A stretch of 12,452 bases of DNA. Source: a virus. Taxonomy: Duplodnaviria > Heunggongvirae > Uroviricota > Caudoviricetes. Positions 7,259 to 12,452 of the stretch are shown here, in pieces; positions within the stretch are counted from its first letter, which is position 1, and every line of letters begins with the position of its first letter. Under the pieces are notes generated by a model. The model made no database searches. It saw only the letters and a list, made by a program, of their open reading frames with translations, and was not told the DNA's origin. Location of the stretch: positions 1-12,452 of IMG/VR virus record IMGVR_UViG_2703718808_000018; one strand, given 5' to 3'. Both the position numbers and the translations under genes were made by a program.

Positions 7259-7667
7259 ACACATCCGTATGGCGATGAATGCCTGGGCATATCCTGATGG
7301 TGAGAAAGTTCCCGCAGCTGAAATAGCCCGGACTTATTTCGAGCTGGGGATGACGTTCCCGGAACTGTACGACGACAGCCATCCGGAAGCCCTGGCTCGT
7401 AATACCCAGAAAATTTTCCGCTGGGTGGAGAAGGACACGTCTGATGCTGTTGAAAAAATTCAGGCGCTGTTACCGGCGATCGAAAAGGCGATGCCGCCTT
7501 TGCTGGTGGCCCGTATGCGCAGTCACAGTTCTGAATATTACCGGGAGATCGTCGAACGACGGGATCGGCTGGTGAAAGATGTGGATGATTTTGTCGCTGT
7601 AGCGATCGCCTGGGGCACCCTGACTAACAGTGGTGGTCAGCCTGGTAATGCTGTTGTTGTGCATTGA
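7242..7667 (+). CDS. YdaT-like protein (Rac prophage family)
   Basis: 141-aa ORF starting MKIKHEHI..., which matches the N-terminus of Rac YdaT as I remember it. It overlaps the end of the cro-like gene by 17 bp. Confidence 0.75.
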   Translation: MKIKHEHIRMAMNAWAYPDGEKVPAAEIARTYFELGMTFPELYDDSHPEALARNTQKIFRWVEKDTSDAVEKIQALLPAIEKAMPPLLVARMRSHSSEYYREIVERRDRLVKDVDDFVAVAIAWGTLTNSGGQPGNAVVVH

Positions 7668-7735
7668 CCAACAATATTTATACCGGATTTCTTCCGGAAG
7701 TTCGTGGGTAAAGTTCGGTATCAGAAGAGGTGAGT

Positions 7736-8767
7736 ATGGCTAATGCCTGGCTCAGATTGTGGCATGACATGCCAAATGACCCCAAGTGGCGAACGATTGC
7801 CAGGGTATCAGGACAGCCAATCGCAACAGTGATGGCAGTGTATATCCACCTTCTGGTGAGCGCGTCACGAAATGTCACGACATGTCACGGCGTGTCACTA
7901 CGTGGTCACATTGATGTCACGACGGAAGATTTAGCAAGTGCGCTTGATGTGACGGAAGACGTAATTGATTCAATTTTGCATGCAATGCAGGGGCGGGTTC
8001 TGGATGGTGACCTTATTTCCGGATGGGAAAAACGTCAGGTGCTGAAAGAGGACAATGGTAACGTTTCGCAAACGGCAAAATCCCCGGCAGAGCGTAAGAG
8101 AGCGCAGCGGGAGCGGGAAAAGCTGCGGAAACATAATGCTGATTGTCACGATGAGTCACGACGTGTCACGCATCTGTCACGACAAGTCACGACAGATAAA
8201 GATACAGATACAGAATTAAACCCCACACATAACGCGCGCGAGAGTATTCCGACCAGTGAGTCGAATGGTGCGCCGTTGCAGACAGCCGAACCTGAATACC
8301 TGGACGGCCTGAGCGAACCGATCGGGAAATTTTCGATGACTACTGTCTGGCAGCCGTCGCCGGATTTTCGACAACGGGCAGCAGTGTGGGGTATGGCTCT
8401 GCCTGAGCCGGAGTTTACACCTGCTGAGCTTGCCGCATTCCGGGATTACTGGATGGCGGAGGGGAAGGTTTTCACGCAGGTTCAGTGGGAGCAGAAATTT
8501 GCCCGTCACGTGCAGCACGTCAGGGCACAGGTAAAACCAGTCAGCAAGGGGGTAAGCCATGCAGCATCAGGTGGCACGGCATCACGGGCAGTTCAGGAAA
8601 TCCGGGCAGCACGCGAACAGTGGGAACGTGACAACGGATTTATCAGCAACGGAAACGGCCTGGAAGCTGTGGGAGCTTATGGGGGAGGTGTATTCGAACC
8701 GCTGGACTCAGAAGAACGGGGCCGCACCTTCGAAGCTCTGGATTGCCCAGATTGGTGCGATGACTGA
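7736..8767 (+). CDS. Replication initiation protein (lambda O-like role; YdaU/DUF1376-type N-terminus, DnaT-like C-terminal region)
   Basis: ATG at 7736 with AAGAGG upstream (the ORF track starts at GTG 7730). The N-terminus AWLRLWHDMPNDPKWRTIARVSG is typical of DUF1376 prophage replication proteins. The gene contains two clusters of phased direct repeats (candidate iterons) and is followed by a P-like gene. Confidence 0.8.
   Translation: MANAWLRLWHDMPNDPKWRTIARVSGQPIATVMAVYIHLLVSASRNVTTCHGVSLRGHIDVTTEDLASALDVTEDVIDSILHAMQGRVLDGDLISGWEKRQVLKEDNGNVSQTAKSPAERKRAQREREKLRKHNADCHDESRRVTHLSRQVTTDKDTDTELNPTHNARESIPTSESNGAPLQTAEPEYLDGLSEPIGKFSMTTVWQPSPDFRQRAAVWGMALPEPEFTPAELAAFRDYWMAEGKVFTQVQWEQKFARHVQHVRAQVKPVSKGVSHAASGGTASRAVQEIRAAREQWERDNGFISNGNGLEAVGAYGGGVFEPLDSEERGRTFEALDCPDWCDD
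7863..7921 (+). repeat. Iteron-like cluster 1: six direct copies of GTCAC(G) at 10-11 bp phasing
   Basis: GTCAC starts at 7864, 7874, 7884, 7894, 7905 and 7916, all in the same orientation and inside the initiator ORF. Confidence 0.6.
8144..8191 (+). repeat. Iteron-like cluster 2: five direct copies of GTCACG at 10-11 bp phasing, followed by an A+T-richer stretch
   Basis: GTCAC starts at 8145, 8155, 8165, 8176 and 8186, followed by GATAAAGATACAGATACAGAATTAAA. This is about 280 bp downstream of cluster 1 within the same ORF. Confidence 0.6.
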
Positions 8768-9221
8768 ACAGCAAATCCGTCTGGTCTGCCGTCAGTGCAT
8801 GGACCGCTGCCGGGCGGGTGAAACGTGGCCCCCGGACCTGGCTGAGTTTGTTGCGCTGATTTCGGAGAGTGGGGCAAATCCATTTGGTCTTACGGTGGAT
8901 GCAGTGATGGAAGAGTACCGGCGCTGGCGCAATGAATCCTGGCGATACGACGGGAGTGATAAATACCCGTGGCCACAGCCTGTGCTGTACCACATCTGCC
9001 TCGAAATGCGTACCAGAGGGATTGAGCGCCAGATGACGCAGGGTGAGTTAAAACGACTTGCGGAACGGCAACTGACGAAATGGGCAAAGCATGTTGGTAA
9101 CGGGATGAGTGTTCCGCCAGTGCGACGACAACTGGAAGGGGCGAAACACCCGCAAGGGCCAACGCCAATTGAACGGCTGAAACAGGAATACGAACGCCGG
9201 AAGGCAGCTGGTTTTATTTGA
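8760..9221 (+). CDS. Replication protein P-like (DnaB helicase loader)
   Basis: The C-terminal two thirds align with lambda P as I recall it (PPDLAEFVAL / YPWPQPVLYHI / ELKRLAERQL versus lambda PSPGQFVAWC / YPWKSNAHYWL / ELRRKAADEL). Stop at 9221 is firm; start is uncertain. ATG 8760 overlaps the initiator stop (ATGACTGA); the same frame is open back to ATG 8679 and ATG 8559, which would give a lambda P-like length but a ~200-bp overlap. Confidence 0.7.
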   Translation: MTEQQIRLVCRQCMDRCRAGETWPPDLAEFVALISESGANPFGLTVDAVMEEYRRWRNESWRYDGSDKYPWPQPVLYHICLEMRTRGIERQMTQGELKRLAERQLTKWAKHVGNGMSVPPVRRQLEGAKHPQGPTPIERLKQEYERRKAAGFI

Positions 9222-9254
9222 ATCTGAGAAACGATTTTGTCGGAGGAAATTTTA

Positions 9255-9971
9255 ATGGAAACTGTATTTGACGCACTGAAAGCACTGAAAAGAGCCTCTT
9301 CACAGGTAGTGGCGGCCCGCCTTGGAATCAGCCGTGAAGATGCGGTCAACGAACTGTGGAAACTGAAGCGCCGCGGTGAAGCGGATAACAAGGGTTCGAT
9401 GTGGTGGCTGATTCAGGCTGGTGAAAGTGAACCGGTGTCACCGGTACCGAAAGTGACAGCGCAAATGCTGATTAAGGCGATTGAACAACATGGCCCACAA
9501 ACGGCAGATGAGCTGGCACTGATGTTCGGGATTACCTCCCGCCGGGCGAATTCATCGCTGGCCATGGCAATCAGCAAAGGGCGTCTGATTCGCGTGAATC
9601 AGGGCGGTAAATTTCGTTACTGCATACCGGGCGCTGATTTACCGGCAGAGCCGGAAGCTGCATCCGTAGCGGAAACAGATGGTAAAGCCTTTCCTCAGCC
9701 AGCAGGTGTTGCGTTACCAGTCCGGGAAACGACGACACAGGAAGAAATGAAAACAGAAATCGTGGAAGACATTGTGAAGTTACAGCCATCGGTCACCGAA
9801 ACGAAAGCAGATGACCTGATTCTACCATCGCTGCATGTGGCTAACCGCGAGCTGCGCCGGGCAAAAGGTCAGGTTCAGAAGTGGGAGCGTGTCTGCGCCG
9901 CGCTGCGGGAACTGAACAAACACAGGGATATTCTCCGGGATATTACCGCCACCAGAGAGCTGCTGCGGTGA
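9255..9971 (+). CDS. Winged-helix DNA-binding protein with two tandem wHTH-like modules and a C-terminal coiled coil (hypothetical)
   Basis: ATG at 9255 with GGAGG 8 nt upstream (the ORF track starts at TTG 9237). Residues ~1-55 and ~75-135 look like two repeats of a helix-turn-helix plus wing, and the C-terminus ([33 protein letters not shown]) is predicted helical. Confidence 0.75.
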
Positions 9972-10285
9972 GTGGCTGGAAGAAGTGGCGCTGGGCGGAA
10001 ATTATGATACTCCGGCAGTGTGCGGGAACGATGACAGTCGAAAGCATCGGCAGTCTGATTGGCCGTAGTGGGGCTGCCGTCAGGACGAAAGCGCGGGAAC
10101 TGGGTATCTGCATGATGTTACGGGGTGATTATCACCAGTCAGCCAAATGTTCACAGCGTGATATTGAGCTGGCGCGGCAACTGCATCAGCGTGGCGTACC
10201 CCGACGGGAAATTGCCGAAAAGTTTGGGATGAAGTTGGGCGCAGTGAATAACTACGTTTATTTCGACAGGAGGGTTCAGGCGTGA
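9968..10285 (+). CDS. Small putative DNA-binding protein (HTH-like segments), hypothetical
   Basis: Proposed GTG start at 9968 overlaps the preceding stop (GTGA); alternative ATG at 10004. The ORF track's start at 9881 lies inside the previous gene. C-terminal [19 protein letters not shown] is HTH-like. Stop at 10285 is firm. Confidence 0.55.
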
Positions 10286-10587
10286 GGGTGAGAATTTATA
10301 TCGCCGGTCCGATGACGGGATATGAAAATTTCAACCGTGAGGCGTTTCACAAGGCGGAAGAAGCACTGAAACAGGAAGGGCATACCGTATTAAATCCCGC
10401 AGTACTTCCGGACGGGCTGACTCAGCCACATTACATGGATATTTGCATGGCAATGATTCGTTGTGTGGATGCGGTTTATATGCTGAAAGGCTGGCAGCGG
10501 TCGGCAGGCGCTAAGGCAGAGCTGGCACTGGCGGAGAAACTGGGGCATGCAGTTATTTTCCAGGAGGCAACCAGTGAGCGAAATTAA
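10282..10587 (+). CDS. DUF4406-like (nucleoside 2-deoxyribosyltransferase-like fold) protein
   Basis: GTG start overlapping the preceding stop (GTGA), with AGGAGGG 7 nt upstream. The N-terminal IYIAGPMTG motif and overall size fit the DUF4406 small Rossmann-like proteins common in prophage nin regions. Confidence 0.75.
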   Translation: MRVRIYIAGPMTGYENFNREAFHKAEEALKQEGHTVLNPAVLPDGLTQPHYMDICMAMIRCVDAVYMLKGWQRSAGAKAELALAEKLGHAVIFQEATSERN

Positions 10588-10734
10588 TTACCAGGAACTA
10601 CGGCAGGTGAAAGAGAAAGCATAATCCAGAACTGAATAATTAAAATCAGCACTGTAAATAAAATTTAATCCTTAACCGGAGGGATTCCTGCACCCTCAGA
10701 ACATCAGGAGACCGCCCGGCAGGGCGGTAGTGAA

Positions 10735-10917
10735 ATGCGAAAGTTCAAAATAATTATTGAAACGGGAATCGCCGGTGGAGATTTCGAGGATGAATTCGAA
10801 GTGAATGATGATGCGACGCCTGATGAAATTCATAACGAAGCAAAAGAAATTTTCTTTAACTACTGCAATTACTCATATCACGAAATAAAAGACGAAGAGG
10901 AAGAACAAAATGGCTGA
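10735..10917 (+). CDS. Hypothetical very acidic small protein (60 aa, about 18 D/E versus 5 K/R)
   Basis: ORF with ATG at 10735. An AGGAG (10706-10710) is separated from the ATG by a 7-bp GC-rich hairpin (10711-10728). The ORF lies inside a segment bounded by 23-bp direct repeats. Confidence 0.5.
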   Translation: MRKFKIIIETGIAGGDFEDEFEVNDDATPDEIHNEAKEIFFNYCNYSYHEIKDEEEEQNG

Positions 10918-11086
10918 TTTTGGTTCAACTAAATACAACGTCAGTTTTGAAGAATGGCATGAACTGTTAATGGACTATGCAGAGTTACGTGGTGGCAGTG
11001 CTGCTGATGCTGAAGCATGGCGTGATGATTATGAAGCAGGAAAAACTCCGGTCGAAGCATATTGTGATGAGTGGGGCGATGAATGA
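10910..11086 (+). CDS. Hypothetical very acidic small protein (58 aa; MADFGSTKYNVSFEEWHELLMDYAELRGGSAADAEAWRDDYEAGKTPVEAYCDEWGDE), below the ORF-track cutoff
   Basis: Hand-translated. ATG at 10910 overlaps the stop of the previous acidic ORF (ATGGCTGA); GAAGAGG lies upstream; stop TGA at 11084-11086. Confidence 0.45.
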   Translation: MADFGSTKYNVSFEEWHELLMDYAELRGGSAADAEAWRDDYEAGKTPVEAYCDEWGDE

Positions 11087-11517
11087 GCGAGATTAATTAT
11101 CAGGAAGGGCATGAAACGGCTGGTCAGCCAACTGAAAAAAGCGAAGCCGGACTGCAAATTACCGGATAAGGCGATGGACTACCTGAAGCGAAACGGACTG
11201 ATAAACGAGGAGAATATTTTACGATGACCTGGCCTGAAGCGTTCATAACGGTAGGAATTGCAATGGCGGTGGCGCTGGTGGTGTATTCGATTTGCCGCTG
11301 GGGATAAAAACGGTTTGCGGGGAAAGAAGAGTTAAGTAGAATTGCTGCGGGTGCTTGAGGCTGTCTGCCTCGGGCATGCCGACGTAAGGCAGACAGAGAA
11401 AAGCCCCAGTTAACATTATGCGTCTTGCAGGACGCTTAACATTAATCTGAGGCCATATCTATGACTTGCACACTTAGATTAGCCTCTTATGCGCCGAAAG
11501 GCAAGGAGCAGCAGGCT

Positions 11518-11673
11518 ATGAAGCAGCAAAAGGCGATGCTAATCGCCCTGATCGTCATCTGTATTACCGTCGTTGTAACGGTAGTGGTAACGAGGAAAGA
11601 CCTCTGCGAGGTACGAATCCGAACCGGCCAGACGGAGGTCGCTGTCTTCACAGCTTACGAATCTGAGAAGTAA
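11518..11673 (+). CDS. hokD: Hok/Gef-family type I membrane toxin (HokD/RelF-like)
   Basis: 51-aa product MKQQKAMLIALIVICITVVVTVVVTRKDLCEVRIRTGQTEVAVFTAYESEK has the Hok/Gef signature: one transmembrane helix, then ...TRK.LCE.R.R.G..EVA.F.AYES.K. ATG at 11518 has AAGGAG upstream; the ORF track's longer form from 11461 is an in-frame upstream extension. Confidence 0.85.
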   Translation: MKQQKAMLIALIVICITVVVTVVVTRKDLCEVRIRTGQTEVAVFTAYESEK

Positions 11674-11741
11674 GAGACCCGGCGAGGGAGAAATCCCTCG
11701 CCACCTCTGATGTGTCAGGCATCCTCAACGCACCCGCACTT

Positions 11742-11768
11742 AACCCGCTTCTGCGGGTTTTGTTTTTT
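11742..11768 (+). terminator. Rho-independent terminator downstream of the hok-like gene
   Basis: AACCCGC-TTCT-GCGGGTT (7-bp stem) followed by TTGTTTTTT. A perfect 9-bp GC-rich hairpin with a GAAA loop (GGCGAGGGA-GAAA-TCCCTCGCC, 11681-11702) precedes it, just after the hok stop. Confidence 0.65.
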
Positions 11769-11839
11769 CCTGGCATTCTGGTTTACAATTCGCACGCCGG
11801 CCTGAACAACTGGCACCTGCTGTGTCACCGGAGAACCCG

Positions 11840-12112
11840 ATGGCGCAACGTATAAAATCCCACAATTCTGAAGCCGTCCCGGCCATTAAGCGGGGGCGGC
11901 ATTCGCACGTATTTAAAACCGACTGGTACCAGCATCCCCCATGCACTGAAGAACAGGCCGAATGGCTGATTCAGTGTTACCGCAGGCGCGGATACGAGGT
12001 TAAGAAAGCCATCAGCCTCGATTATCGTCACTGGATAATCTCTGTCAGGCTCCCTTATTCCGAACATCCACCGCGTCCGTCCCGCACATTCCAGCAACGT
12101 ATCTGGAGGTAA
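11840..12112 (+). CDS. Hypothetical protein (90 aa)
   Basis: ATG at 11840 with GGAG 7 nt upstream (the ORF track starts at GTG 11822); stop TAA at 12110-12112. Basic protein with no recognised domain. Confidence 0.55.
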   Translation: MAQRIKSHNSEAVPAIKRGRHSHVFKTDWYQHPPCTEEQAEWLIQCYRRRGYEVKKAISLDYRHWIISVRLPYSEHPPRPSRTFQQRIWR

Positions 12113-12113
12113 C

Positions 12114-12452
12114 GTGCGGGTATTACTTCGACCTGTTCTGGTGCCGGAACTTGGCCTGGTGGTCCTTAAGCCCGGACGCGAATCACTGCCTGTTTTTCAT
12201 TGCGGCAGGGTGCTGGTGGAGCCGGAACCGAAAAACATGCGCGGTCTGCCGTCCGGAGTCGTTCCTGCCGTTCGCCAGCCGCTGGCAGAGGATAAAACAT
12301 TACTGCCATTTTTCAGCGATGAGCGGGTTATTCGTGCAGCAGGTGGTGCAGGTGCACTGTCTGACTGGTTATTACGTCACGTGAAATCCTGCCAGTGGCC
12401 ACACGGCGATTATCATCACAGCGAAACAGTCATTCACCGTTATGGTACCGGC
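12114..12452 (+). CDS. Hypothetical protein, 3'-partial (runs off the window end)
   Basis: Frame open from GTG 12114 (GGAGG just upstream) to the window end, 113 codons with no stop in my hand translation (MRVLLRPVLVPELGLVVLKPG...CQWPHGDYHHSETVIHRYGTG). Not in the ORF track because it is incomplete. Confidence 0.4.
   Translation, partial: MRVLLRPVLVPELGLVVLKPGRESLPVFHCGRVLVEPEPKNMRGLPSGVVPAVRQPLAEDKTLLPFFSDERVIRAAGGAGALSDWLLRHVKSCQWPHGDYHHSETVIHRYGTG

Follow-up and report, generated by a model that had tools for sequence, protein, structure and literature searches.

Conserved out-of-frame overlap between the replication initiator gene and a lambda P-like helicase loader gene in Rac-like lambdoid prophages, with a probable loader start inside the initiator gene

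Among the described systems close to the locus presented here is the O-P pair of phage lambda, in which the gene of the replication initiator is followed by that of the helicase loader and the two overlap by only 4 nucleotides (nt; ATGA). Lambda P comprises domain I (residues 1-29, a disordered 'lasso'), domain II (about 30-119), domain III (about 120-192) and domain IV (193-233) (PMC12661323), and the deletion of its residues 9-86 abolished both the replication function and P lethality (PMC3640518). The present locus belongs to a stretch of 12,452 nt from a virus of the Caudoviricetes (IMG/VR record IMGVR_UViG_2703718808_000018, positions 1 to 12,452; hereafter the window) and shares with lambda the initiator-then-loader order. 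Its P-like gene has an open reading frame (ORF) for 220 amino acids (aa), co-linear with the 233 aa of lambda P, leader and domain II included, at an identity of about 25% that direct alignment detects only from residue ~70 or 85 on. The differences are that the initiator carries a DnaT-type domain and not the C-terminal domain of lambda O, and that the two ORFs overlap by 209 nt. In lambda itself a read-through O' product ending inside P was once reported, and toxicity was described for O constructs that continue into P by 35 or 62 codons (PMC3640518). According to the coordinates (O stop at 1084-1086 in locus L038), lambda P lies in another relative frame than the P-like gene of the window, so that the O' arrangement and the present overlap are not the same; O' may be a distant echo of it.

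Three other systems invite comparison. Escherichia phage vB_EcoP_PAS61 (Uetakevirus) presents a DnaT-like 'primosomal protein I' followed by a 261-aa 'DNA replication protein P' that matches residues 17-220 of the window protein, but its two genes meet in the classic way, overlapping by 4 nt, and the second starts at a GTG preceded by GGGAGG. It follows that not every DnaT-type module has the long overlap, which characterises a single P subfamily. DopC and DopE, domesticated lambda O/P-like proteins, pair an HTH_36 plus DnaT-C-type protein with a loader of family PF06992, a combination also identified in two of the loci compared here (L009 and L023); these genes are chromosomal, domesticated in Cellvibrionales and Oceanospirillales, and the word 'overlap' is absent from the paper that describes them (Brezellec et al. 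2017, PMC5509034). Viral overprinting pairs are similar in that two frames are read from one DNA, with one frame constrained in each sub-region. Unlike in overprinting, the ends of two neighbouring, linked genes overlap here, no gene is nested in an older one, and the overlap sits at a recombination module boundary. Constraint asymmetry is common in overlapping genes. To our knowledge, few pairs of well-understood, functionally linked genes in double-stranded DNA phages and bacteria have a conserved out-of-frame overlap of ~200 nt.

The initiator gene occupies 7736..8767 (+) from the ATG used by the Prokaryotic Genome Annotation Pipeline (PGAP), or 7730..8767 from the GTG of the mechanical ORF list; it comprises a replisome-organiser-type N-terminus, a DnaT DNA-binding domain (aa 201-267) and a C-terminal tail (aa 277-345), and ends at a TGA at 8765-8767. 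The P frame, +1 relative to the initiator, has a TAA stop at 8553-8555, is open from 8556 and presents its first ATG at 8559. The proposed coding sequence (CDS) is the long form at 8559..9221 (+), 220 aa plus stop, and the candidate dual-frame segment is 8559..8767 (+), 209 nt with P codons 1-70 over initiator codons 277-345 plus the stop. The preliminary description of this DNA had noted the open frame, its 209-bp overlap and the 220-aa product, as well as the shorter 153-aa product of the ATG at 8760, and all of these coordinates hold. The latter ATG (Met68) overlaps the initiator stop as ATGACTGA (8760..8767, +). A third in-frame ATG, that of Met41 at 8679..8681 (+), would give 180 aa and had not been mentioned.

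The three starts correspond to three classes of annotation. RefSeq and PGAP use 8760 and the 153-aa form (WP_000139447.1), as in all E. coli copies inspected, and the versions of the E. coli protein given by GenBank submitters range from 140 to 153 aa. In Salmonella, Citrobacter, Klebsiella and others PGAP uses the start at Met41, of ~180 aa. Versions of the P family of 177-181 aa and of 215-223 aa are also present in databases.

The main evidence on the start is the position where conservation of the P family begins. In homologue alignments of 31 and later 44-48 sequences, down to 40-50% identity, conservation starts near residue 35 with the motif AWKLWELMGEVYSNRW..KNG..PS.LW, and the conserved block AW.LW..MGEIYSNRW..KNG..PS.LWIAQIG spans residues 34-66. 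The elements W35xxW38 and M..IYSNRW..KNG..PS.LW are kept down to the lowest identities of that range. Residues W49, K52, N53, G54, P57 and W61 are invariant, and so is W38, which is listed as such in the 48-sequence alignment only. The initiator residues encoded over the W38 bases differ between lineages (V-G, M-A, M-D, V-E and L-G), so the invariance of this tryptophan belongs to the P frame. The preliminary description had named conservation beginning at 8760 as the observation that would speak against a long P; it begins instead ~33 codons upstream, and both the ATG at 8559 and the Shine-Dalgarno (SD) motif before it are conserved. Since conservation begins upstream of both later ATGs, 8760 is excluded as the main start, and the same position argues against 8679 as the only one.

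The upstream start was studied in 31 loci from different Enterobacterales species, three of which were set aside as atypical: L034 (frameshifted), L037 (truncated match) and L031. In the others no stop interrupts the P frame over the 85 to 105 codons that precede the conserved WPPDL motif. The first ATG lies 89-91 codons before WPPDL in most of the ~30 species-level loci, and indels account for the departures from this distance, together with the frameshift of L034 and two copies that are orphans. In the window an SD-like motif, AAGGGGGT (8546..8553, +), is located 5 nt before the ATG at 8559, inside the initiator codons for Lys-Gly-Val; its duplex with the anti-SD has an energy of -11.8 kcal/mol, unmatched at any position in the initiator gene body. 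A GGAGG, GGGGG or similar motif was identified 5-9 nt before the first ATG in 20 lineages, over initiator residues that vary by lineage (KGV, TGG, NEV, ARV, RQV and TGE), which means that the nucleotide motif is conserved and not the initiator peptide. The SD and ATG, signals for an internal start, are thus conserved in a fixed position despite the differing residues of the host frame. The median SD/anti-SD energy over these lineages is -9.8 kcal/mol at the first ATG; position 41 has -4.8 and position 68 has -2.5, the latter being equal to the background median of other positions in the same initiator genes (-2.5 kcal/mol). In 19/20 lineages the SD of the first ATG ranks in the top 0-7% of positions within its own initiator gene. 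All of the 36 E. coli-level haplotypes retain the SD, the ATG and an intact long ORF.

Resampling was carried out in both directions for each of the 20 lineages. With the initiator protein fixed and its synonymous codons redrawn, a stop-free frame that also had the ATG and an SD as good as the real one arose with a joint probability of 0.003-0.17 per lineage, with a consistent direction in 20/20; no combined P value is given, since the lineages have ancestry in common and the ATG was taken post hoc, being the first of its open frame. In the reverse direction, with P codons redrawn under an unchanged P protein, the initiator frame was open across the overlap in 0.2-19% of the simulations per lineage, and it is actually open in 20/20 lineages. 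Both frames are therefore open across diverged lineages beyond what codon choice predicts. A hairpin in the mRNA that would mask the ribosome-binding site of 8559 was looked for in 8505-8625, the fold of which was no more stable than that of shuffled sequences (z = -0.13); the idea that such a hairpin is opened by initiator-reading ribosomes, making P translation depend on that of the initiator, was dropped on this result.

By its sequence, the product of the long ORF belongs to the lambda P family and is unremarkable within it, with a predicted role in DnaB binding and loading. It matches PF06992 with 58 bits (cut-off 26, E 1.3e-15) and phrog_109, 'P-like helicase loader' (236 positions), with E 1e-62, profile positions 18-236 being aligned to residues 14-220. 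Direct comparison with lambda P by BLASTP and hhalign gave an alignment only from residue ~85 on; the N-terminus was settled by the family profiles and the fold search. In a profile alignment with the Protein Data Bank, position 69 of the P-family profile stands opposite residue 81 of lambda P. The AlphaFold2 model of the 220-aa ORF has a mean predicted local distance difference test (pLDDT) of 73.6, with residues 1-26 disordered (pLDDT <50) and helices over 28-105, 113-180 and 203-216. Within the first of these, helices 28-45, 47-53 and 59-66 have the highest values of the protein (pLDDT 86-88), and all three are upstream of the annotated start. The best Foldseek matches are the lambda P chains from the complex that lambda P forms with DnaB; against 9oa1_Z, the sole fully resolved chain, 217 columns are aligned with probability 1.0 and a template modelling (TM) score no higher than 0.37, a value to be expected where domains are joined flexibly, so the relative placement of the domains is not confirmed. 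The 220-aa ORF thus aligns end to end with lambda P and its model has the layout of that protein. The leader, domain II, DnaB-binding domain III and C-terminal helix of full-length lambda P are all found only in this form, and the length of lambda P (220 versus 233 aa), which the preliminary description expected the long form to restore, is borne out by the profile and fold alignments. Domain I and roughly half of domain II would be missing from the 153-aa form, and with them the equivalent of lambda P residues 9-86, which are needed for function.

Constraint within the overlap is divided in two. Region A (8559..8660, +) places P leader residues 1-34 over the initiator tail helix motif ASRAVQEIRAAREQWER, and its changes follow the initiator frame; in region B (8661..8764, +) the folded P domain begins, with the conserved AWKLWELMGEVYSNRWTQKNGAAPSKLWIAQIGAMT, on DNA that also encodes the final 35 residues of the initiator, ending in VFEPLDSEERGRTFEALDCPDWCDD, and the changes of this region follow the P frame. 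The switch at ~8661 was not part of the preliminary description. Polymorphism was counted in the 36 E. coli-level haplotypes. A scan of viral contigs gave only close relatives of 95-100% identity, which were of use for these counts but uninformative on diversity. Synonymous and non-synonymous changes in region A number 12/8 in the initiator frame and 5/15 in the P frame, with 12 variable sites at third, 6 at first and 1 at second initiator codon positions. In region B they number 1/14 in the initiator frame and 13/2 in the P frame, the variable sites being mostly P third positions. Across genera, the codon-position entropy of region B (0.74/0.57/1.17) resembles that of the P-only region (0.67/0.56/1.42), and that of region A (1.21/1.44/1.34) has no clear signature. 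The initiator motif ASRAVQxIRAAREQWER of region A is conserved across initiator types, and the P leader (residues 2-34) appears from these counts to vary freely provided that the frame stays open. The EPLDxEER sequence of the initiator in region B is largely forced by the P codons for SNRWTQKNG. Identity in the initiator frame of region B exceeds the P-constrained expectation (0.392 vs 0.287, and 0.449 vs 0.292 in the EPLDxEER half); since in P-only control stretches the expectation is likewise exceeded, by up to 0.074, these values are only suggestive of selection on the last 35 initiator residues.

A genuine long overlap, with P most probably starting at 8559, is the likely reading of these data, held with good confidence, and the annotated start at 8760 is very probably wrong, an annotation truncation. 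The conserved folded protein needs a start before residue 35, most likely that of the ~220-aa form. Ribosomes would start independently at 8559 on their own SD inside the initiator gene and produce a loader of 220 aa with a disordered, domain I-like leader (residues 1-26), a domain II-like helical domain from residue 28, a DnaB-binding domain and a C-terminal helix. Those reading the initiator would continue to 8767 in the -1 frame relative to P, adding a C-terminal tail of ~70 aa with a putative function. Over the first ~100 nt the tail helix of the initiator would be constrained and the P leader would drift; over the next ~100 nt the P domain would be constrained and the initiator tail would mostly follow. 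The SD, ATG, tail and P would be passed jointly from prophage to prophage, preceded by initiators whose origin-binding domains are unrelated.

Several points weigh against this reading. Initiation at 8559 is deduced from sequence signals, and the resampling probabilities are modest (up to 0.17 per lineage) for an ATG picked after the fact in related lineages. Residues 2-34 have no amino-acid constraint in the P frame, as judged from the counts (5 synonymous, 15 non-synonymous) and the entropy of region A, so the leader sequence itself is no argument for translation. Two Erwinia copies of P without an initiator upstream, described below, have shorter leaders (9 and 25 aa), and the full leader length is therefore not essential. 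A second, shorter isoform may be made from Met41, nearly always present and with a moderate SD, and the stop-overlapped ATG at 8760 could allow some coupled re-initiation.

If Met41 were the start itself, the protein would have 180 aa, the overlap only 89 nt, and the frame upstream would be open but untranslated. Met41 is found in at least 90% of the homologues, a GGGAG-like stretch formed by the W38-E39 codons precedes it with a median energy better than background (-4.8 kcal/mol), the unconstrained residues 2-34 fit such a start, and so do the many database entries of 177-181 aa. This explanation is nevertheless unlikely. The invariant W38 and the conserved W35 lie 5' of Met41 over initiator residues that vary, which indicates that P is the frame in which these codons are read; moreover Met41 falls mid-way in the predicted helix 28-45, is CTG (Leu) in L024, and as a start would leave unexplained both the absence of stops and a conserved ATG with a strong SD 40 codons upstream.

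Initiation at 8760 by coupling to the initiator stop (ATGACTGA) would make the 153-aa product a naturally N-truncated P and the open frame upstream fortuitous. This is the PGAP start in E. coli, and an equivalent stop-start geometry was identified in 11/20 lineages and in 36/36 E. coli haplotypes, but neither a conserved start codon nor conservation beginning at that point was found. The strongest conservation of the family (residues 35-67) is located just 5' of 8760 and has the substitution signature of the P frame. Position 68 is Leu in several proteins and CTG in L029 and L033, the distance from the stop to this ATG ranges from -28 to +20 nt between lineages, and the SD is at background. 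The product would also lack the three confidently predicted helices and the equivalent of lambda P 9-86, and this start is highly improbable. Of the two options left by the preliminary description, the genuine long overlap is thus favoured and the truncated N-terminus with initiation at 8760 is rejected. That a ribosomal or mutational +1 frameshift joins the two frames into an initiator-P fusion is barely credible: phrog_15931 (482 positions; initiator matching 1-347, P ORF 279-482) indicates fused ORFs in some phage records, and fused proteins with DUF1376 or DUF1627 exist in databases (P0106, P0032), but these are single-member clusters and probably frameshift or assembly artefacts, no slippery site was seen, though no search aimed at one was made, the conserved SD and ATG favour independent initiation, and both ORFs are intact and separate in 36/36 haplotypes.

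The initiators found upstream of P are diverse. They comprise at least four N-terminal types, with the DnaT domain present or absent: the lambda-O type (PF04492) in L022, HTH_36/DnaD_N in L023 and L009, DUF1376 in L024, L027 and, by PGAP name, L006, and several others without a Pfam match. BLASTP similarity to the window initiator is confined to residues ~269-343 (L024), 283-340 (L023) and 272-327 (L036), in a numbering from the ATG at 7736 that places the P start at residue 275. The tail of ~70 aa therefore begins where the P gene begins and, being common to otherwise unrelated initiators, moves together with P. Among E. coli copies the exchanged unit is larger: from ~8196-8217 onward it comprises the DnaT domain as well as the tail and P, and it follows different N-terminal domains. 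When the 75-aa tail by itself was compared with a database, only 8 fragments were retrieved, all from close relatives (7 named E. coli), and the result was thus uninformative on the number of initiator types, for which the comparison of loci was used instead. The mosaic junction that the preliminary description had suggested is real and located at the P start, where different initiator families share only the tail.

It is possible, although doubtful, that this segment of ~210 nt is a portable adaptor, in which the 5' third of the loader gene encodes, in the -1 frame, the C-terminus of any initiator that recombines with it. Were this so, the tail (the helix ASRAVQxIRAAREQWER and the acidic EPLDxEER end) would dock the initiator on its cognate loader, and the specificity of the pair would be encoded in the loader gene and be inseparable from it by recombination.

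Where an Enterobacterales lineage has an initiator that overlaps P, the overlap measures 161-224 nt, or 149 nt in the atypical L036. Outside this order, Vibrio phages D67 (L119:1702-2361) and 219E41.1 (L121:1693-2334) present P-like ORFs of 219 and 213 aa that begin 212 and 200 nt, respectively, inside O-like initiator genes, with 36% identity from residue 33. Their records contain shorter downstream 'hypothetical protein' CDSs starting at 2035 or 1876, and loader homology is detected from position 1801 or before, inside the O-like gene. These loaders may be among the viral VdhL-like loaders described previously (PMC11087808).

Atypical copies were identified in three genomes. Erwinia sp. CGal63 (L031:2492-3118) and MMLR14_017 (L035:2474-3043) have intact P-like ORFs of 208 and 189 aa with no initiator upstream. 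The neighbour of one of them is a gene that we take to be ttcA-like, and the other adjoins a phosphotransferase system (PTS) transporter gene. They could be prophage remnants, or domesticated loaders like DopE. Their use as a natural control without overlap was given little weight, since they are flanked by host genes and are apparently orphan remnants. In Leclercia adecarboxylata NCTC13032 (L034, ~2600-2710) there are stops in the P frame just 5' of the conserved domain, into which the peptide of the initiator frame continues; the interruption stems either from a frameshift mutation or from faulty long-read assembly.

The gene in itself is a usual one for the lambda P family, and predictions of the long form are already present in databases. 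The literature searched, with subscription journals mostly outside its coverage, held no description of this overlap, and neither did the DopCE and VdhL papers. What is new is that the out-of-frame overlap of ~200 nt appears, on the evidence of conservation, to be real and kept from Enterobacterales to Vibrio phages, that the reference annotation systematically trims it, and that it coincides with a module boundary between initiator types. A systematic annotation error is thereby corrected in a widespread prophage protein of E. coli and Shigella, given as 153 aa in RefSeq and as ~180 aa in other genera; the annotated form, if expressed, would probably be an inactive loader. The overlap lends itself to clean tests by single-base changes, each disrupting one reading frame and leaving the other protein unaltered. 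Its position at the recombination boundary between initiator types also leads to a testable idea of how lambdoid phages keep the match between initiator and loader while shuffling origin-binding domains.

The locus is a common one. Positions 7700-9300 of the window are 100% identical to a Rac-like lambdoid prophage of E. coli O178:H19 strain 2012C-4431, the identity to O157:H7 EC4115 over these positions is 98.4%, and related copies are present in 2,619/5,426 complete E. coli genomes. The gene order is that of a lambdoid early-right operon, with a ydaS-like regulator (6986-7258), a ydaT-like gene (7242-7667), the initiator, P directly 3' of it and a DUF1627 gene, and it is unchanged in the related loci examined. 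The DUF1627 gene starts at a TTG at 9237 in the mechanical ORF list and at 9255 in PGAP. The annotation also places a RelE/ParE-RelB toxin-antitoxin pair, unrelated to the overlap, just 5' of the region of the prophage repressor (in and around window 5970-6257; L003:1-249). Finally, a repeat with a period of 10 nt and the core GTCACGAC forms two clusters of ~5 copies each inside the initiator gene (7864-7923 and 8145-8201, ~270 nt apart), between the coding regions of the N-terminal domain and the DnaT domain; by analogy with lambda ori, located inside O, these clusters look like origin iterons.

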